64,000 nucleotides of DNA from Myxococcota bacterium (GTDB lineage: Bacteria; Myxococcota_A; UBA796; CAJQPC01), in contig JAZAMN010000020.1 in the NCBI GenBank assembly GCA_036229005.1, positions 192,001 to 256,000 on the forward strand, given 5' to 3'. Positions 443 to 9,081 of this stretch are shown in pieces; positions within the stretch are counted from its first letter, which is position 1, and the number at the start of each line of letters is the position of its first letter. The notes under the pieces are model-generated. The model did no database searches and was not told the DNA's origin. It saw nothing but the letters and a program-made list of their open reading frames with translations. Position numbers and translations under genes: made by a program.

Positions 443-2890
443 TCAGCGCAGCGCGATCCCCAACACGTCGGCGAGCACCCCCGCCGCCGTCACGTCGCCG
501 CCCGCGCCCGGCCCCTGGACCACCAGCGGCTGCCGCGGGTAGCGCCGGGTCGTGAAGGCCACCAGCGAAGCCGCCCCCCGCAGCGCAAAGGCCGGATGGG
601 ACTCCTCCACGAACACAGGGCCCACCACCAGGCTGGGCTGCGGCTCCAGCTCCACCGTGGCCAGGTAGCGCAGCCGCCGACCCTGCTTGGCCTCCAGCTC
701 GATGCGGGCTCGCAGCTCCGCCCCAAACTCGCCCAGCGCCCCCAGGAACTCCTGGGGTCCCTCGATCTCCAGCAGCGCCTGGGGCACCAGCGGCTCCACC
801 TGCACATCGCACAGTTCCAGGCGCAGCCCCAGCTCCCGGGCCAGGATCAGCGCCTTCCGCGCCGCGTCCGTGCCCGCCAGGTCCTCCTGCGGCCGCGGCT
901 CCGTGAAGCCCCGCTCCATGGCGAGGCCCACCGCCTCATCCAGCGCCATGCCCCCACTCAGCGCATCACACAGAAAGCCCAGCGTCCCGGACAGCGAACC
1001 CTGGATCCGGGTCACCCGATCCCCGGTGCGCAACAGATCCTGCAGCGTGGAGATCACCGGCAGCGCAGCCCCCACCGTGGTCTCGTAGCTCCAGCTCCGG
1101 TGCGCCTCCGCCCGCGCTGCCCGCAGCCGGTCCACCGTCCCCAGCGGCAGGGTCAGCGGCTTCTTGTTCGCACCGACCACGTGGATGCCCCGGCTCCAGG
1201 CCGCCTCATACAGACCCGCCAGCGCGCCAGATGCCGTACAGTCCACCAGCACCGGCTCGTGCAGCCCCGCCAGCCAGTCCAGCACAGACTCCGTCACGGG
1301 TCCCCAGGGGCCCTCCGTCTGCTCGCCGCCCTCCAGCAGAGCTGACCAGTCCTCCAGAGCCAGGCCCCGAGAGTCTGTGACGACCCGCCTTCGGTCCGCG
1401 AGCCCCACCACCCGGAGCTCCAGTCCGTGCTCCTTCTCCAGCACCGGGGCCTGTTCGTGAATCTGTGTGAGCATCGCACTCCCCACGGTCCCCTTCCCCA
1501 GCACCAGCAGGCTCGCGCGTCTGTGCGCCAGGTGAAACGCATCGTGCACCCGCCGCACCGCCTGCGGCAGCGACTCTTGGCGCACCACACACGAGATCGA
1601 CCGCGCCGACGCCGACTGCCCGATCGCCAGCACGTTGATGCCCAGGCTCCCCAGCGCCGAGAACAGACGGCCCGCCACGTTGGGCGTGCGCCCCATCGCC
1701 TCGGCCACCAGGGTCAGCAGCGCCACCCCACCGTGCACCTTGGGTTCTTTGAGCTCCCCCCGCGCCAGCTCCCCCGCGAAGGCCTCTGTGATGGCCTTGA
1801 GCACCGCCTGCTGGTTCTGTGCGGGGACCACCACGCTCATGGCCTGCCCGTGCGCCGAGTGGGTGGCCAACCACAGTTGATCCACGACGGGGTCGAGGGC
1901 TCTGTGCAGTCGCTCAGCCAGCGGCCCACCGCGAGACACCGTCTGTAGCTGGAGATCGATCAGGATCTGCCCCTCAAGCGAGGTCACCGAGGTCGCGTTG
2001 CGCTCGTCGTTGCTGCCCAGCGGCGTGATCCAGGTCCCGGGGGCGTCGGGTGCGTCCAGGTTGCGGATCCACAGCGAGATGCCGTCCTGACGCAGCGGCA
2101 GCATGGTGCGTCGGTGCAGCACCCGCGCCCCGAAGGTGGCCAGCTCCAGCGCCTCATCGTAGGAGAGCTGCTCCAGCGGCCGGGCGTCGTCGACCAGCTT
2201 GGGATCGGCGCTCAGCACGCCGTCCACGTCCGTCCAGATCTGTACCTGATCCGCGCCCAGCCCCTGCGCCAGGAGGGTCGCGCTGTAGTCCGATCCATTG
2301 CGGCCCAGGGTGGCGGTGCCCCCGCCGCGGCGCTGGGCGATGAAGCCGGTGACCACCGGAATACAGTCTCCCCACCCGGCCTGCAGGGTCCGCAAGCGCT
2401 CAAAGGAGGCATCGAGCTCCACCAGACCCCGGGGACCCTCCACCAGCAGCCAGGTGCGGGCGTCCACGGCCTGGGCTGGCACACCCGACACAGAGAGCGC
2501 GCTGGCCACCACCTGCGAGGCGACCAGCTCGCCGTAGGCGAGGACCCGGTCCCGCACGCCATCGGGGACCTCCCCCAGCAAGCGCACCCCCTCCAGCAGC
2601 GAGCGCAGCTCGCCCCGCAGGATCTCCAGGCGAGCCCCGACTGCGGCCGGCAGCTCGTACTGTGTTGTGTCTCGCGCCAGGGCCTCCAACCCATCTGTGA
2701 CGGCTTCGGAGTCCCCGCGCTGCGCGGCATCCAGGAGCGCGAGCAGAGAGTCTGTGGTGCCTCCGAGCGCGCTGACGACCACTGCGACGGGGGACTGTGT
2801 GGCCTGTTCGCGCACGTGGCCGACCACGCGCTGGACATGGGCCGGGGAGCCCAGCGAGCTCCCCCCGAACTTGAGGACGACATGGCTCAT
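443..2890 (-). CDS. metL: Bifunctional aspartate kinase / homoserine dehydrogenase (MetL/ThrA type)
   Basis: Start MSHVVLKFGGSS; TLGRNGSDYSA, IWTDVDG, ACT region, YETTVGAALP, GSLSGTL, GPGAGGDVTAAGVLAD; ATGA overlap with metX stop; metL vs thrA chosen from context. Confidence 0.9.
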   Translation of the reverse strand: MSHVVLKFGGSSLGSPAHVQRVVGHVREQATQSPVAVVVSALGGTTDSLLALLDAAQRGDSEAVTDGLEALARDTTQYELPAAVGARLEILRGELRSLLEGVRLLGEVPDGVRDRVLAYGELVASQVVASALSVSGVPAQAVDARTWLLVEGPRGLVELDASFERLRTLQAGWGDCIPVVTGFIAQRRGGGTATLGRNGSDYSATLLAQGLGADQVQIWTDVDGVLSADPKLVDDARPLEQLSYDEALELATFGARVLHRRTMLPLRQDGISLWIRNLDAPDAPGTWITPLGSNDERNATSVTSLEGQILIDLQLQTVSRGGPLAERLHRALDPVVDQLWLATHSAHGQAMSVVVPAQNQQAVLKAITEAFAGELARGELKEPKVHGGVALLTLVAEAMGRTPNVAGRLFSALGSLGINVLAIGQSASARSISCVVRQESLPQAVRRVHDAFHLAHRRASLLVLGKGTVGSAMLTQIHEQAPVLEKEHGLELRVVGLADRRRVVTDSRGLALEDWSALLEGGEQTEGPWGPVTESVLDWLAGLHEPVLVDCTASGALAGLYEAAWSRGIHVVGANKKPLTLPLGTVDRLRAARAEAHRSWSYETTVGAALPVISTLQDLLRTGDRVTRIQGSLSGTLGFLCDALSGGMALDEAVGLAMERGFTEPRPQEDLAGTDAARKALILARELGLRLELCDVQVEPLVPQALLEIEGPQEFLGALGEFGAELRARIELEAKQGRRLRYLATVELEPQPSLVVGPVFVEESHPAFALRGAASLVAFTTRRYPRQPLVVQGPGAGGDVTAAGVLADVLGIALR

Positions 2891-3957
2891 GGTGTGGTCC
2901 CTCCCAGGACCCGGGCGAAGATGGGGCCGAGCTGGCCCCACTCCAGAAGGAAGGCGTCGTGCCCGTGAGGGCTGGCGAGTTCGTGGTAGACGGCGCCGGG
3001 GATGCGGGCCGCCAGGGCCTGGACCGCAGCGGCCGGAAAGAGCTGGTCTGTGTCGATTCCGACCAGGTGTGTGTGAGGCAGCCGCGCCAGGCCCCAGGGC
3101 TCTGTTGGCCTCCAGGACTCCCCCGGATCCCGAGGGGGCCGCCGCTCGATGTCGTGGTGGTCCATCGCGTCCAACTGACACAGATAGGCGCGGGGGTCGA
3201 AGCGGTCGGCCAGCTTGCGGCCCTGGTGCTGCAGGTAGGTCTGTAGCTTGTAGGGTTGCACCGCGCTCCAGTCGGCGCAGGTCTGTGCGCGCCCCTGCCG
3301 GAGCTCCAGGCCGGGGTTGGCCCGGTAGCTCAGGTGGGCAAGCTGCCGGGCGCGCTCCAGTCCGTGTTCGTGGTCGGCCAGGATGCACTGGCGGCCGACG
3401 TGGTTCCAGCCCATCACCCACGGACTCGTGCGCTCCTGGGCCGCCAGGACCAGCAGGCGCCCGATACGCTCAGGGGCCAGCACACCCAGACACAGAGCGA
3501 TCATGCCCCCCAGCGAGCCCCCGGCGCAGAGCTCCAGGCGCGCCACGCCCAGGCGGTCCAGGGCCAGGAGCAGGGCGCGCGCCTGGTCCCAGGGGGTGAT
3601 GGGCGCGGGCAGCCAGTCCTCGTCTGTGGGAGGGAGCCCCTGGGTGCCCGCCGGGGCCCGGACACCCGGGACCTGTGCCAGGCGGGGGAAGCCTTGGGTC
3701 CGGGGCCCGGTGGAGCCATAGCAGGATCCCAGGTTGTTGAAACACAGAGTGCGGAAGCGCCCCGTGTCCACCTCCTTCCCCGGCCCCACGACCCCAGACC
3801 ACCACTGCTGGGGTCTGTGGTCGCCGGTCAGAGCGTGGATCACCAGCACCACGGGCGCATCCGCGGGCCCAAGGTCGCTCAGCGCCAGCGCCACATTGGG
3901 CAACTGTACGCCGCACTCCAGGGTCAGCGGCCCCAGCTCCAGCACAGACTCGCTCAC
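2887..3957 (-). CDS. metX: Homoserine O-acyltransferase (MetX family)
   Basis: GTG start overlapping metY stop (GTGA); HALTGD, NNLGSCYGSTGP, GGSLGG nucleophile, DQLFP, HGHDAFL. Confidence 0.9.
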   Translation of the reverse strand: MSESVLELGPLTLECGVQLPNVALALSDLGPADAPVVLVIHALTGDHRPQQWWSGVVGPGKEVDTGRFRTLCFNNLGSCYGSTGPRTQGFPRLAQVPGVRAPAGTQGLPPTDEDWLPAPITPWDQARALLLALDRLGVARLELCAGGSLGGMIALCLGVLAPERIGRLLVLAAQERTSPWVMGWNHVGRQCILADHEHGLERARQLAHLSYRANPGLELRQGRAQTCADWSAVQPYKLQTYLQHQGRKLADRFDPRAYLCQLDAMDHHDIERRPPRDPGESWRPTEPWGLARLPHTHLVGIDTDQLFPAAAVQALAARIPGAVYHELASPHGHDAFLLEWGQLGPIFARVLGGTTP

Positions 3958-5231
3958 AGACCAGCCAGCGCCTGATCCAGGTCGGCGACCAGGTCCTCGA
4001 TGTGCTCCAGCCCCACGGAGAGCCGCAACAGATCCTGGGTGACCCCCGTGCTCTCCTGCTGCTCGGGGGTGAGCTGCTGGTGGGTGGTGGACGCGGGGTG
4101 GATGATCAGGCTGCGGGTGTCGCCGATGTTGGCCAGCAGCGAGAAGAGCTGGGTGTTGTCCGCGACCTGCCGCCCGGCAGAGAGGCCCCCCTTGACGCCG
4201 AAGGTCAGCAGCCCGCCAAAGCCGCCGGTGAAGTAGCGCTTGGCGGTGGCGTGCCCGGGGTCGCCCTTGAGCCCGGGGTAGCGCACCCATGCGACCTTGG
4301 GGTGCTGCTCCAGCCAGGTGGCCAGGGCCAGGGCGTTGCGGCTGTGGCGCTCGACCCGCAGGTGCAGGGTCTCCAGGCCCTGGATGAATCCGTGTGCGTT
4401 GAAGGGGGAGATGCACGCGCCGAAGTCGCGCAGGCCCTCGATGCGGGCGCGCAGGATGAACGCGAGCGCGCCGAGGTCCTTGAGCTGGAGTCCGTGATAG
4501 CCGGGGTGGGGCTCGGTGAACTCGGGGAACTTGCCGTTGGCCCAGTCGAAGCTGCCGCCGTCCACGATGGCCCCGCCGATGCCGGTTCCGTGGCCGCCGA
4601 TGTACTTGGTGCAGCTATTGACCACGATGTTCGCGCCCACGCTCAGGGGGCGGACCAGCGCGGGGCTGGCGGCGGTGTTGTCCACGATCAGCGGGATCTG
4701 TGCGTCGCGGGCGATGGCCCCGATGGCCTCGAAGTCCGGGGGGATCAGCGAGGGGTTGGGGAGGGACTCCAGGTAGATGGCGCGGGTCTTGGGCGTGATG
4801 GCGTCGGCGAAGGCCTGGGGGTCTGTGTGGTCCACAAAGCGGGTCTGTATGCCCAGGCGGCCCAGGGAGTTTGCCAGCAGGTTGTAGGTGCCCCCGTAGA
4901 CCCCGGTGCCGGAGATCAGCTCGTCTCCGGGGCGCAGGATGCTGAGCAGCGCCAGGGTCTCCGCGGCCTGTCCGCTGGCCAATGCGAGCCCGGCCTGGCC
5001 CTCCTCCAGGGCGGCCAGGCGCTTCTCCAGGACGTCGGCGGTGGGGTTTGTGATGCGGGTGTAGATGGGCCCGGGGTCGCTGAGGGCGAAGCGCGCCGCG
5101 GCGTGCTCGCTGTCCCGGAAGACGTAGGAGGCCGTGTGGTAGATGGGCACCGCGCGGCTGCCGGTGGTGGGGTCGGGGTCGTAGCCCGCGTGCAAGGCCA
5201 GGGTCTGGGGGCGGTAGTCAGGCTTGGACAT
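3954..5231 (-). CDS. metY: O-acetylhomoserine aminocarboxypropyltransferase (sulfhydrylase)
   Basis: TGSRAVPIY, IYTRITNPT, ASGQAA, PLP lysine SCTKYIGGHG, ANIGDTRSLIIHPASTTH. Confidence 0.93.
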   Translation of the reverse strand: MSKPDYRPQTLALHAGYDPDPTTGSRAVPIYHTASYVFRDSEHAAARFALSDPGPIYTRITNPTADVLEKRLAALEEGQAGLALASGQAAETLALLSILRPGDELISGTGVYGGTYNLLANSLGRLGIQTRFVDHTDPQAFADAITPKTRAIYLESLPNPSLIPPDFEAIGAIARDAQIPLIVDNTAASPALVRPLSVGANIVVNSCTKYIGGHGTGIGGAIVDGGSFDWANGKFPEFTEPHPGYHGLQLKDLGALAFILRARIEGLRDFGACISPFNAHGFIQGLETLHLRVERHSRNALALATWLEQHPKVAWVRYPGLKGDPGHATAKRYFTGGFGGLLTFGVKGGLSAGRQVADNTQLFSLLANIGDTRSLIIHPASTTHQQLTPEQQESTGVTQDLLRLSVGLEHIEDLVADLDQALAGL

Positions 5232-5453
5232 GGGGGAGCTCCTGGGAGGTTTGTGTGAGGTTTAGGGTGGAGACAGAGCGGTCCGCCCCCCACTTCTGTG
5301 TGGGGTCTCACGGACCGGACAGCAGCACACACCAGCGCGCGGCGACCGCCGACTCAGGGAGTCGTCACGGAGCAGCCACCCGCGGGCGGGGCTTGGAGGC
5401 GCGTCTTGTTGTGGGGGTTACGGCTGGTGTGGCGAGACGGGCGCGCGCACCAG
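5232..5453 (-). promoter_or_regulatory. Candidate attenuator region between leader peptide and metY
   Basis: mRNA CACACCAGC (5423-5431) can pair with GCUGGUG at the leader stop (5448-5454) or GCUGGUGUG (5328-5336); C-rich/G-poor tracts; no U-tail terminator. Confidence 0.5.
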
Positions 5454-5531
5454 CTAGGACATGCAGACACACATCGCCATGGCACCCAGACAGGGCGCGC
5501 AAGCTGCGGCGATGTGCATGTTGGTCTTCAC
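5454..5531 (-). CDS. Putative Met/Cys-rich leader peptide MKTNMHIAAACAPCLGAMAMCVCMS
   Basis: GTG start, TAG stop; 4 internal Met + 4 Cys in 25 codons; directly upstream of and co-oriented with met operon. Confidence 0.7.
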   Translation of the reverse strand: MKTNMHIAAACAPCLGAMAMCVCMS

Positions 5532-5538
5532 GTTGAAG

Positions 5539-5568
5539 AAAATACGGCGCACACCCCTCGCTGCGCAA
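5539..5568 (-). promoter_or_regulatory. Sigma70-like promoter of the met leader
   Basis: TTGCGC-N18-TATTTT, 7 nt before the leader GTG. Confidence 0.55.
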
Positions 5569-5662
5569 GAGCCAGGCCTGTGACAGTTGCCACAGCCTCC
5601 AGATTCCAGTTGTTGAACCAAGACTCTGGAGCACTGAACTTTCTTCGGTTCGCGACGATTCG

Positions 5663-7357
5663 CTATTCCGGACGCGCCAACACCCGCTGATCGCCCCCCG
5701 AGCTCCCATCCAGCTCCAGCTCGGAGATCAGCACCGGCGGCACCGCCCAGGCGCCGGGCAGGCCGCCCACAGGTCCGATGTAGAAGCGCTCGCTGCCTGG
5801 GGGGCCGTCCATCACGCCCACGTAGTCGGCGGTCTCCCCCGCCATCACCGCATCCCGCAGCACGCGGCGGTCCACGCCGGAGAACTGCAGGCCGCGCACG
5901 GGCTGCTGGGTGCCGTCCGGCAGGAGCAGGTAGGCCTCGTAGGGGCGAGTGAGGCCGGCGCCGGGGCCGTCCCCCATGAAGGTGACGTCGAAGTCCTCGG
6001 TCACGGCGGGGGGCTCGATGCGCCGGATCACCAGCAGGCCCTCGTTGCCGGTCTGCTGGGCCATCCGCAGGCCCTTGCGCTCCAGGGCCTTGAGGCGGCG
6101 GCTGCGCTTGGGCTCCACCCGCACGTTGGAGGGCATGGCCTCGCGGCGGCTGCTGCCCAGGCCCCGGCCGTGGCCGGTGCTCTCCCCGTCCACATCCGCG
6201 GGGATGCGGCTCATCAGGACCCGGCGCACGACGCCGTCCTCAACGAGCTCCACCTCCTGGCCGGGGACGCCTTCGTGGTCGTAGGTGTAGCGGCCGGCGG
6301 CGCCGGGGGTGTCGGGGGTGTCCACCACGCGCCAGCCGGCGGGCATCAAGCGGCGGCCGACCCGGGCGGTGGCGCGGGCGATGGGGGCCTCGCCGAACAT
6401 GCCGCGGCCCTCGGCCTCGGGGGGCGTGCCCACGAACTCGGCTGCGGCGAGCTGACGGTAGAGCTCGACGGAGGCGGCATCATCAAAGAGCACTGGTCCC
6501 AGGTACTCCTTGAGCACAGGGGCGTCCTCCAACGCCACGAGCCAGTCGGCCATCTCGCGCACCTCGGCCTCCATCTGTTCGATGGGGGGCAGCTCGCCTG
6601 CGTGGCGGGCGACCCAGGACCGGCCGTTGCGCAGCCGGCTGCCGTCGGAGTGCTTGTAGACCGCCTCCACCCGGATCACGACGTAGCCCGTCTCGGTGGC
6701 GAGCTTGGTGCCCTCGGAGTTCACCAGGAGGCGGACGCCCTGCCAGTCGCTGCCGGCGGCCACCCCCGACTCGAGCTGGGGGTACTCGGCCAGCACCCCG
6801 CTGAGGTGGGTGATGCGCTCCTCCAGTCCGGGGGCGTCGATGGTAAAGGGCTGCGCGTCCAGATCGACCGTGGGCGTCACGGGGTACATCGCGGGGGGCT
6901 TCTCCTCGCTCTGGTCGCCGGGGGGCAGCTCAGCCACCTTGCGGGAGAGCTGCTCGACGGACTGCTTGTAGGCGATGTCCGTGGCCAGCCAGAGCTCGCG
7001 GCCCAGGGCCACGGGATCGTCTTCGTGAGGCAGGTGGGCGCTGAGCACCCCGCCGGGCTCGCCGAAGGCGGCGAAGTTGGCGGAGTCGAAGCTGGAGTCT
7101 CCAGCCCGGGACTCCACCCGCAGGACGCGGTGGGGGCGCGTCTCCCGCGCCATGACCGCCCCAAAGTCGGCGTACACCGTGGTGACCTCGCCGTCTACGA
7201 CCTCGTAGGACAGCCACCAGGGGGGCGACTCGTCCGGGAGGTGCAGCTCAGATGTGGCGCGGGCCAGCTCCTCCTCCATCACCCCCAACAGAAGCTGCTG
7301 GGACTCGGCGGTCGGGGGCGCGGCCAGGGCGGACAGGGAGAGCAGCAGGGGGATCAT
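5663..7357 (-). CDS. TldE/PmbA-like protein with signal peptide
   Basis: Start MIPLLLSLSALA overlapping tldD stop (ATGA); YLGPVLF, YDHEGVP, STGHGR, SNVRV; lacks HExxxH. Confidence 0.75.
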   Translation of the reverse strand: MIPLLLSLSALAAPPTAESQQLLLGVMEEELARATSELHLPDESPPWWLSYEVVDGEVTTVYADFGAVMARETRPHRVLRVESRAGDSSFDSANFAAFGEPGGVLSAHLPHEDDPVALGRELWLATDIAYKQSVEQLSRKVAELPPGDQSEEKPPAMYPVTPTVDLDAQPFTIDAPGLEERITHLSGVLAEYPQLESGVAAGSDWQGVRLLVNSEGTKLATETGYVVIRVEAVYKHSDGSRLRNGRSWVARHAGELPPIEQMEAEVREMADWLVALEDAPVLKEYLGPVLFDDAASVELYRQLAAAEFVGTPPEAEGRGMFGEAPIARATARVGRRLMPAGWRVVDTPDTPGAAGRYTYDHEGVPGQEVELVEDGVVRRVLMSRIPADVDGESTGHGRGLGSSRREAMPSNVRVEPKRSRRLKALERKGLRMAQQTGNEGLLVIRRIEPPAVTEDFDVTFMGDGPGAGLTRPYEAYLLLPDGTQQPVRGLQFSGVDRRVLRDAVMAGETADYVGVMDGPPGSERFYIGPVGGLPGAWAVPPVLISELELDGSSGGDQRVLARPE

Positions 7358-9081
7358 GCGGACTCCCGGGTGTTCAGAGCGGCGGGGCGGTCGGCGGCGG
7401 ACTGGGGCGCCTCGGGCGGGGGCAGCAGCGGCGGTCGGTCGTTCTCCTTCTCCTTGCGCTGCACCTCGATCTCGTTGAGCAGCAGGCTGGGTGCGACCGC
7501 GGAGACGGGGACCCAGCCGGACTCTGCGCCGCACACGCCGTTGAACACCGCGGGGTCGTCGGCGGCGGCCTCGATGCGGGAGAAGGTGGTCAGGGGGGTG
7601 CCGATGAAGTCGCCTCCGCGCACCAGCTCGTCGGGGCGGCCGTCGGGGTAGACCTTCCAGACGCTGACGGGGCGCACGTTGAAGGAGTTGGGGGTGACGC
7701 GTCCGGTCAAGGTGAACCCGCCGGTGATGTCATCCACGACCAGGCCATAGGGCTTGCCCTGCTCCTGGATCTCGGCGATCAGCATCTCCCGGAGCTCGGC
7801 GTAGGAGACGGTCTCGTGGGCCTCCACGATCAGGTTCCCCTGGCGCGCGACGATGGCGTTGCCGGGCTGGCGGCGGCCGTGGCCGTTGGAGTGGTCGAAG
7901 CCCTCGATGGGGGCCCGGGACATCAGGAAGCCCTGGAGCTCTCCGTGGTCGATCAGCGACACGCGCTGCGCGGGCACGCCCTCGTCGTCGTAGGGGTAGA
8001 AGCCGTTGAGGTCCACGCCCGCCAGGCTCGCGGTGGTGGGGTCGTCATAGACCGACAGGAACTCAGGAAGAACCTGCTCTCCCACCATGTCGGTGAAGGT
8101 CTGTCCCTCGTCCTCGTCCTTCTGGCGGTGGCCCTCGATGCGGTGGCCGAAGATCTCGTGGAAGAACACCCCGGCGGCGCGGCCGCGCAGGATGGCGGGG
8201 CCGGTGTAGGGCTCCAGCAGGGGGGCGTTCCGCAGGTCGGTCACGCGCTGTCCCGCCGCGCGCGCCATCTCTTGGACCGCGGCCGGGTCGGGCAGGCCAT
8301 CTTCCGAGGAGGCGTCCACGTAGTCGTAGACCGAGAGCTGGGCGCCGTCCTCGGCCACCGACATGGCGTAGACGCTGACCCGGTAGCGCACCCGGCTGTG
8401 CTGGATGCGGGTGCCCTCGCTGTTGACCACGACGAAGTCCTGGAGCTCGGCGTGCAGCTCGACCCCGGACTGGTGGACCTCGGGGTACTCCAGGAAGACC
8501 GCGCTCACCTCGCGCAGGGTGCCCTCCCAGGCGGGGTCGACGGCCAGCGCGCCCTGGGGCCGCAGATCCACGACGGGGTCGGCGGGGGAGAAGTCATCGG
8601 AGCTGTCCTCTCGCTCCACCTTGACCGCCTGATTGGCGCGCACCTTGGTCATGCGGCGCACAGCCTGCTGGTAGGCGTCGTCCAGCTCCCGCCATAGGAT
8701 GATCTCCGCGGCGTCCAGGGTGGCCTGGTCCTCCCCCAGCGGCAGGCGCACCAGGCTGCGGGCTTCCTCGGAGAACCAGCCGGCGTCCAGCAGCTTGTGG
8801 GTGTTGTCGAGCTGGTGGCTGCCCACGCGGATGTCGAGATCGGCGACCCGGCTGTCTCGGATGGAGCTGGAGTGCAGCGCCCCGTTCACCGCGGCGATCC
8901 GCTCGGTGTGGGTGTCGGTGATCCCGATCGCCAGGTGATAGGGCGCCTCGTCCTGGTCGGAGAGGGCCTCCATCGTGTGCGCCACCATGGCCTCGGCCAG
9001 GGTGAGCATCGGCGAGGCGGCGGCCGGGGGGGCGTCGTCTCCGGCGCTCGCGGTGAGAGCGGAGAGCAGCAGCAGCGTCAT
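7354..9081 (-). CDS. tldD: TldD-family metalloprotease with signal peptide
   Basis: FFHEIFGHRIEGH zinc motif, YDDEGVPAQ, SNGHGR, NGVCGAESG. Confidence 0.85.
   Translation of the reverse strand: MTLLLLSALTASAGDDAPPAAASPMLTLAEAMVAHTMEALSDQDEAPYHLAIGITDTHTERIAAVNGALHSSSIRDSRVADLDIRVGSHQLDNTHKLLDAGWFSEEARSLVRLPLGEDQATLDAAEIILWRELDDAYQQAVRRMTKVRANQAVKVEREDSSDDFSPADPVVDLRPQGALAVDPAWEGTLREVSAVFLEYPEVHQSGVELHAELQDFVVVNSEGTRIQHSRVRYRVSVYAMSVAEDGAQLSVYDYVDASSEDGLPDPAAVQEMARAAGQRVTDLRNAPLLEPYTGPAILRGRAAGVFFHEIFGHRIEGHRQKDEDEGQTFTDMVGEQVLPEFLSVYDDPTTASLAGVDLNGFYPYDDEGVPAQRVSLIDHGELQGFLMSRAPIEGFDHSNGHGRRQPGNAIVARQGNLIVEAHETVSYAELREMLIAEIQEQGKPYGLVVDDITGGFTLTGRVTPNSFNVRPVSVWKVYPDGRPDELVRGGDFIGTPLTTFSRIEAAADDPAVFNGVCGAESGWVPVSAVAPSLLLNEIEVQRKEKENDRPPLLPPPEAPQSAADRPAALNTRESA

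Follow-up and report, generated by a model that had tools for sequence, protein, structure and literature searches.

Can a ribosome that reads a short leader peptide control methionine biosynthesis, a pathway whose control is taught as a matter of SAM riboswitches, T-boxes or MetJ/MetR/SahR-type proteins? The question is raised by a met operon on the minus strand of the window (the whole stretch of 64,000 nt analysed here, from a Myxococcota bacterium). Its first gene, metY (3954..5231), encodes an O-acetylhomoserine sulfhydrylase (TIGR01326, 611 bits, cut-off 495) and is followed by metX (2887..3975), homoserine O-acetyltransferase-like, and by a gene for a bifunctional aspartate kinase/homoserine dehydrogenase (443..2890). 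The initial annotation read the three as metY-metX-metL. The first name stands; the second has MetX models as its best matches, at scores below their cut-offs, and the third has to be changed, as HMMs place the protein with the ThrA type (AK-HD I model, 726.5 vs a cut-off of 726) and not with MetL (510 vs a cut-off of 582). The operon includes no modifying enzymes. In the whole genome (G000, 94% complete) MetH is present, and SAM-I, MetJ, MetE and trpB were not found. Upstream of metH (G000:C31:227162, locus L275) is a methyltransferase-like ORF whose end the gene overlaps and which we take to be possibly a SahR-type regulator. Directly upstream of the met locus lie two genes resembling TldD/PmbA metalloproteases (5663-9081, minus strand), with weak HMM matches only.

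Between these genes and metY, the initial annotation had described a short ORF of 25 codons on the minus strand (5454..5531), running from GTG at 5531 to TAG at 5454 and ending 222 nt before the metY start, and translation of the sequence returned the same 25 residues. The peptide contains 4 internal Met and 4 Cys, five of these within the last 8 codons, and such a composition is rare. Among 57,315 candidate sORFs of 10-50 codons, taken from the six frames of the whole genome, ten have at least 6 Met+Cys in their last 15 codons and three have at least 7, the metY leader being the sole one of these three with at least 3 Met and 3 Cys. Two of the ten directly precede sulfur amino-acid genes, namely the metY leader and the leader of a cysM-like gene. 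The product has no Pfam match and is absent from a collection of 15 billion proteins; Cys-Cys, present in six order-level relatives, does not occur in it. In an Rfam scan of positions 4500-7000 no family reached its gathering score, three weak matches fell outside the leader, no covariance model of a SAM riboswitch or T-box matched, and the leader itself gave no match even at an E value of 10. Contigs from two RNA runs of one sample cover 156 nt inside metY and none of the leader.

The promoter proposed for this sORF is present in the sequence, with a candidate -35 hexamer TTGCGC (5563..5568), 18 nt, a candidate -10 hexamer TATTTT (5539..5544), 7 nt and then the GTG. The pair is a weak match to consensus (3/6 and 4/6) and went unlisted by a promoter scan needing 9 of 12. 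Its -35 box overlaps a terminator-like hairpin (5567-5548) that may be the end of the upstream TldD-like operon. As first described, no Shine-Dalgarno sequence accompanies the start codon, the best match ahead of the GTG being 2 of 6. Across the seven order-level leaders described below, Shine-Dalgarno matches range from 2 to 4 of 6, and each has an nAnnnT box 6-7 nt ahead of its start codon, which in six cases is TAnnnT. Judged from sequence, this geometry is probably that of a leaderless transcript, which in our genome would start at or next to 5531.

Comparable sORFs were found at homologous loci. MetY is patchy in the order (12 of 154 genomes match at E 1e-90), and a class-level search added none beyond it. 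Since metY is absent from all 21 other genomes of the same family that were searched, the met operon may have been acquired recently or may be a single case of retention. A Met/Cys-rich sORF ends 132-222 nt ahead of metY in seven of the 12 MetY-bearing genomes (this one, G055, G060, G071, G093, G094 and G098), a set of few and related homologues in which G093 and G094 are nearly identical. Among the nine genomes with MetY at 64% identity or more, seven have the leader at the same place; it is missing from G063, which has the closest MetY (78%), from G099 and from three with proteins at 50-53%. In a quick MetY tree, a group of 11 proteins (92% SH-aLRT) takes in the leader-bearing ones of the order along with four from loci that have no leader. 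A MetY of the same phylum is sister to a Kofleriaceae record in this tree, from which Myxococcota is the probable phylum. The peptides are 25-41 residues long and keep the Met/Cys tail but neither the N-terminal part nor the length; alignment of the seven is confined to the start, one Cys column and the region around the terminal Met column. Their Cys number goes from 4 to 8 and their internal Met from 1 to 7, with Met:Cys ratios from 1:6 to 7:8. The last 12 codons contain 5-10 Met+Cys in frame vs 0-3 in the other two frames, the leader is conserved behind unrelated upstream genes, and reverse-strand controls were positive in one of 118 cases, itself the antisense of a leader-bearing locus. 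The metY leader is real and conserved, and very probably regulatory.

A fixed distance between one codon and one RNA stem, which was not part of the initial annotation, is the central feature of its anatomy. The Met24 codon, an invariant ATG (5460..5462), lies exactly 5 nt ahead of stem S1 (5423..5454), formed by GCTGGTG (5454-5448) with CACCAGC (5429-5423), and the G of the sORF stop codon is the first base of the stem. All seven order-level leaders show the same arrangement of last ATG, 5 nt and then a 7-bp stem (11 bp in G098). In three relatives the stop codon is several codons downstream with an unchanged ATG-to-stem register; therefore the stem is tied to the codon and not to the stop. 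S1 also shows compensatory changes: over six aligned leaders, 40 of 40 cells are paired and three of the seven pairs changed on both sides, a covariation score reached by none of 500 shuffles, though inflated by relatedness, as two of the six sequences are nearly identical. Slid controls were 12-71% paired and had no double changes. The S1 loops vary freely in sequence and in length (22-58 nt).

A candidate second helix, S2 (5402..5439), would pair the S1 loop (5439-5435) with 5406-5402. This pairing, with a segment 15-21 nt past S1, amounts to 7-9 bp in five relatives (shuffle p 0.002-0.12), is absent in G098, and is weak in our genome (5 bp, p 0.32, not significant). In such a model S1 and S2 together would make an H-type pseudoknot; the fold of the whole leader is no more stable than that of shuffles (z -1.0). 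A covariance model of the six leaders, run over 150 genomes of the order, returned the six training loci and four weak matches, none with a Met/Cys leader and at least two of them in coding DNA, and it missed the true leader of G098, whose loop is longer. A metagenome scan for Cys-Cys-Met plus the stem motif gave at least 119 matches; of the 80 examined, none is next to metY, metX or thrA and none is a credible leader, and we regard them as chance matches.

Elsewhere in the phylum, the register is kept and its codon changes. In a phylum sample of 401 genomes, 35 of them MetY-positive, we examined 26 further MetY loci and found a short ORF with 2-8 internal Met+Cys in eight, which were chosen by eye, seven of them failing a filter of 5 Met+Cys in 12 codons. 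Six of the eight have a -10-like box 6-7 nt ahead of the start together with a -35 box matching at 5-6 of 6 positions. These leaders carry S1 in the same register, with C-G replacing T-A at the third pair, and seven of them have Cys as the register codon; the eighth has Arg, which follows three Met. Over the resulting 15 leaders, 102 of 105 cells pair in register and 4/15 pair at the next position; five of the seven stem positions were part of the search pattern, and the two outside it pair in 28 of 30 cases. Four MetY loci were fetched later, of which one fits the register by eye (L313, the 16th leader), one is ambiguous and two have no leader, which brings the register to nine more leaders in the phylum, eight with Cys. 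At another metY of the phylum that has no leader, a SAM-I/IV riboswitch stands ahead of the gene (L123:1259-1392).

In Bacteroidota, Met/Cys leaders and SAM-I exclude each other at metY. From 78 loci (L033-L110) we set aside six: four with titles from outside Bacteroidota, one titled Aeromicrobium and one with <400 nt upstream. The remaining 72 comprise 53 with SAM-I only, 18 with a Met/Cys leader only, none with both and one with neither; SAM-I was called here by our own profile, built from four Rfam hits, and 2 of the 53 were directly confirmed by Rfam. These loci include kin and are not independent, for which reason no weight is given to a p-value. The leader loci (L033, L035, L041, L043, L072, L081, L087, L093, L097, L098, L100-L102, L105 and L107-L110), 14 of which form tandem pairs within 1,000 nt, belong to Flavobacterium, Gillisia, Salinimicrobium, Christiangramia and Salegentibacter. 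Both leader loci that were scanned have a U-tailed terminator after each leader. The Bacteroidota leaders follow the classical design, and a common origin with the Myxococcota leader need not be assumed. A SAM-II element was seen on the opposite strand upstream in five of the leader loci. The Flavobacterium psychrophilum transcriptome report gives leaders for ilvE, hisG and pheA and none for metY (PMC9723704), and its supplement 9 files a 100-nt RNA upstream of metY as the independent RNA Rfp20. By eye, Rfp20 looks homologous to the first of the Flavobacterium leaders, and it may be the attenuated transcript of a metY leader.

What, then, would the leader do? We consider it very probably a leaderless attenuator of the metY-metX-thrA operon, read by a ribosome that stalls on it. 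Transcription would start at or next to the GTG, and a ribosome loaded on the 5' end would read the Met and Cys codons, waiting with a hungry codon in its A site whenever Met-tRNA or Cys-tRNA runs low in its charged form. Once Met24 occupies the A site, this codon and the 5 nt after it would fill the 11-nt mRNA channel and S1 would sit just outside (geometry after PMC7282821). A ribosome stalled at this last Met codon would thus leave S1 folded, a C-rich tract behind it partly masked and the operon transcribed; one step further on it would open S1. With both amino acids plentiful, the ribosome would reach the stop codon, open the 5' arm of S1 and be released, after which the transcript would be ended or silenced in the 130-220 nt ahead of metY.

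The initial annotation had proposed that stalling on Met and Cys codons senses both sulfur amino acids. The conserved leader and its promoter geometry support this reading, with some qualification. Methionine seems to be the fixed sensor in the order-level leaders, because the last ATG never changes and keeps its register with S1 in seven of seven while Cys and internal Met counts vary, and dual sensing of methionine and cysteine is likely. A rather improbable alternative is that cysteine alone is sensed, as a measure of general sulfur supply and in the way of the mycobacterial poly-Cys leaders, with the Met codons secondary. Cys outnumbers Met in six of the seven order-level leaders, two of which have a single internal Met, and it occupies the register in seven of the eight leaders of the second group; methionine starvation would, moreover, limit the initiator tRNA too. 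Against this, the register codon is ATG in all seven leaders of the order, the cysM leaders of the same genus have no Met at that place, and in Bacteroidota the leaders are dominated by Met and take the place of a SAM sensor.

Considerably less probable is that the RNA element itself, the S1 and S2 pseudoknot, senses a ligand as an undescribed SAM riboswitch or a protein-binding site, the sORF being a second input or incidental. SAM riboswitches are common on met genes, the first S1 pairs are invariant in sequence, and five of the seven order-level leaders have the H-type pseudoknot geometry. However, the element matches no Rfam family, is fixed to a codon at a 5-nt register, leaves its loops free in length and sequence, and has no credible copy away from metY in the 150 genomes of the order covered by the covariance model. 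We give slightly less credit still to a functional Cys/Met-rich peptide, binding metal or sulfur or acting as an arrest peptide like CruR or TnaC, in place of a codon sensor. Spacing like that of Cys-x-x-Cys does occur and arrest peptides with Cys motifs exist, CruR among them (PMC12360218), but the operon lacks modifying enzymes, Pfam gave no match, few columns align among the seven peptides, the Met:Cys ratio is unsteady, and the stop codon shifts while the nucleotide register stays. A chance ORF in TG-rich intergenic DNA, whose TG repeats encode Cys, Val and Met and whose T-rich box would be the tail of the upstream terminator that overlaps the proposed promoter, is largely refuted by the genome-wide rarity, the conservation behind unrelated upstream genes, the frame specificity and the reverse-strand controls.

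Returning to the stalling attenuator, its output would be exerted between leader and metY. Directly behind the sORF lies a C-rich, G-poor tract (5378..5447; 36 C and 16 G in 70 nt), a candidate Rho-loading site partly inside S1. The excess of C over G in 70 nt is +12 to +20 in all seven leaders and +20 here, a skew matched by 0.6% of the windows of this genome. A second stretch containing GCTGGTG (5328..5336), with no clear equivalent seen in the relatives, is predicted to pair with the 3' arm of S1 if a ribosome covers the 5' arm, and in the folding model S1 opens with a ribosome placed at the stop. Further on come a GC-rich hairpin lacking a U tract (5280..5316), a candidate pause or release point, and the metY Shine-Dalgarno sequence AGGAG (5239..5243). 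No intrinsic terminator was found in 5232-5453, nor by eye in six relatives. ViennaRNA folds of the stalled and run-through states, in the seven order-level and eight other leaders, predicted no consistent change in access to the Shine-Dalgarno sequence, with a program that ignores pseudoknots and kinetics.

Because folding predicts no consistent Shine-Dalgarno change and there is no intrinsic terminator, we favour Rho-dependent termination at the C-rich tract as the output, with a confidence that stays a little below even. Some other kind of pausing or termination that uses no terminator hairpin is a weaker possibility, and sequestration of the Shine-Dalgarno sequence somewhat weaker again. 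Rho itself is divergent in the lineage. In our genome it is a C-terminal fragment at a contig edge (G000:C34:3-185); G001, G060, G071, G093 and G098 have divergent proteins scoring 253-427 bits (cut-off 509), and a Rho-like match was not found in the leader-bearing genomes G055 (97% complete) and G324. Read-through or a frameshift fusion to metY was rejected as an output, being opposed by the in-frame stops that follow and by a frame relation that is not conserved over the 132-222 nt. The leader would act like a leader-peptide attenuator, yet it has neither the intrinsic terminator of the classical type nor the predicted Shine-Dalgarno switch of the mycobacterial one.

S1 may also take part in the sensing. 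We advance as a tentative proposal that the stem, 5 nt behind the regulatory codon, slows tRNA binding at that codon, in which case a single Met or Cys codon could report charged-tRNA supply, and exchanging that one codon could redirect the sensor to the other amino acid, with Met used by one clade and Cys by a second. In most relatives S1 would then be a pseudoknot with S2, parked at the ribosome entry channel. On this proposal, a leader that is not translated would leave S1 folded as well, so that failing to initiate under methionine starvation would give the same "on" state as stalling, which would remove the usual objection to methionine attenuators. The hairpin that stimulates frameshifting in dnaX hinders A-site tRNA binding, and it has the register of S1, 11-12 nt from the first P-site base with a 5-nt linker after the A-site codon (PMC7282821). 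By analogy, S1 might slow A-site tRNA binding in a similar manner and sharpen the sensing at one codon, which is speculation. Unlike dnaX, the metY leader has neither a slippery sequence nor a conserved frame relation to metY, and the dnaX effect is not tied to amino-acid sensing (PMC7282821).

Among known systems, the classical leaders trpL, hisL, thrL and leuL likewise place cognate codons in a short leader before a biosynthetic operon. The metY leader differs in having no U-tailed terminator and no Shine-Dalgarno sequence, and its conserved stem follows the regulatory codons, whereas in classical attenuators it contains them. The Bacteroidota Met/Cys leaders and the His leader of this genome have U-tailed terminators, like the classical type. 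A Pasteurellales thrA leader with Met codons was reportedly described by Vitreschak in 2004. The initial annotation knew of no described Met+Cys attenuator, which is too strong. Searches of full-text literature, subscription journals aside, found neither a methionine attenuator that had been tested nor one ahead of metY, but they did find two Met-rich leader candidates, before Streptomyces lividans metNIQ (PMC8079986) and Deinococcus deserti metG (PMC4007540), the former a candidate leaderless Met/Cys leader. Named metL, it resembles ours in being leaderless, in its 29 residues with Met and Cys clustered C-terminally, and in its downstream hairpins, lack of an intrinsic terminator and methionine genes downstream; it differs in that it controls a transporter and not biosynthesis (PMC8079986). 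That report lists it as a candidate on RNA-seq grounds and leaves its Cys codons undiscussed (PMC8079986). The D. deserti leader precedes the methionyl-tRNA synthetase gene, is Met-rich with one Cys and has a mapped leaderless start; it differs by its place before metG and is described as putative (PMC4007540).

Tested systems close to ours are the poly-Cys leaders of Mycobacterium smegmatis (Ms5788A), which share with ours leaderless starts, C-terminal regulatory codons, the lack of an intrinsic terminator and sulfur genes downstream (10.1101/834739). They differ in using Cys only and in sequestering the Shine-Dalgarno sequence, an effect not predicted by folding of the metY leader; also, loss of the Ms5788A start codon increases attenuation, an effect that may be reversed in the metY leader (10.1101/834739). 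Cys leaders are further reported before Rhodobacterales cysS (PMC8632094), and for actinobacterial cys leaders Rho was proposed (PMC1262725). In the uORF-controlled Rho attenuators mgtL and tnaC, translation of the leader changes the RNA fold and exposes or protects a C-rich Rho site, in response to signals other than those considered here (PMC12360218); for the metY leader, with the divergent Rho of its lineage, a role of Rho is a proposal. In this sense our finding is not wholly new, as leaderless Met-rich leaders and mycobacterial poly-Cys leaders precede it and methionine control has so far only been proposed. Leaders standing where sister lineages have SAM-I make ribosome sensing a real alternative, and since culturable Flavobacteriaceae carry Met/Cys leaders, such control is testable now. 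The fixed codon-to-stem register, in turn, offers a sharp prediction on how a leader that has no terminator and very few sensing codons could work.

The organism seems to use leaderless leaders habitually, because its genome has His, Cys and Met/Cys leaders. Ahead of hisG (G000:C21:23748, plus strand, locus L279) lies a leaderless His-rich leader, 22 codons long and with a U-tailed terminator, whose start is 6 nt behind a TTGACA/TAAACT promoter. It came first among 336 candidates in a promoter-filtered genome scan for leaderless leaders, a scan that left out the metY leader, whose -35 box matches at 3/6 only. The cysM-like gene is preceded by a Cys-rich leader of 34 codons (G000:C47:7864-7760, minus strand, locus L277), 8 nt behind a CATACT box; every one of the four genomes of the genus has this leader. 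After this gene come ORFs that resemble by eye Mec, a sulfur carrier and MoeZ, as in the mycobacterial-type cysteine route. A Cys-rich leader was present at five of 30 loci examined, these four and a locus of G042, where a different leader precedes cysM. In the G042 leader (L291), a Cys codon stands 5 nt ahead of an 11-bp stem, the same register as that of S1.
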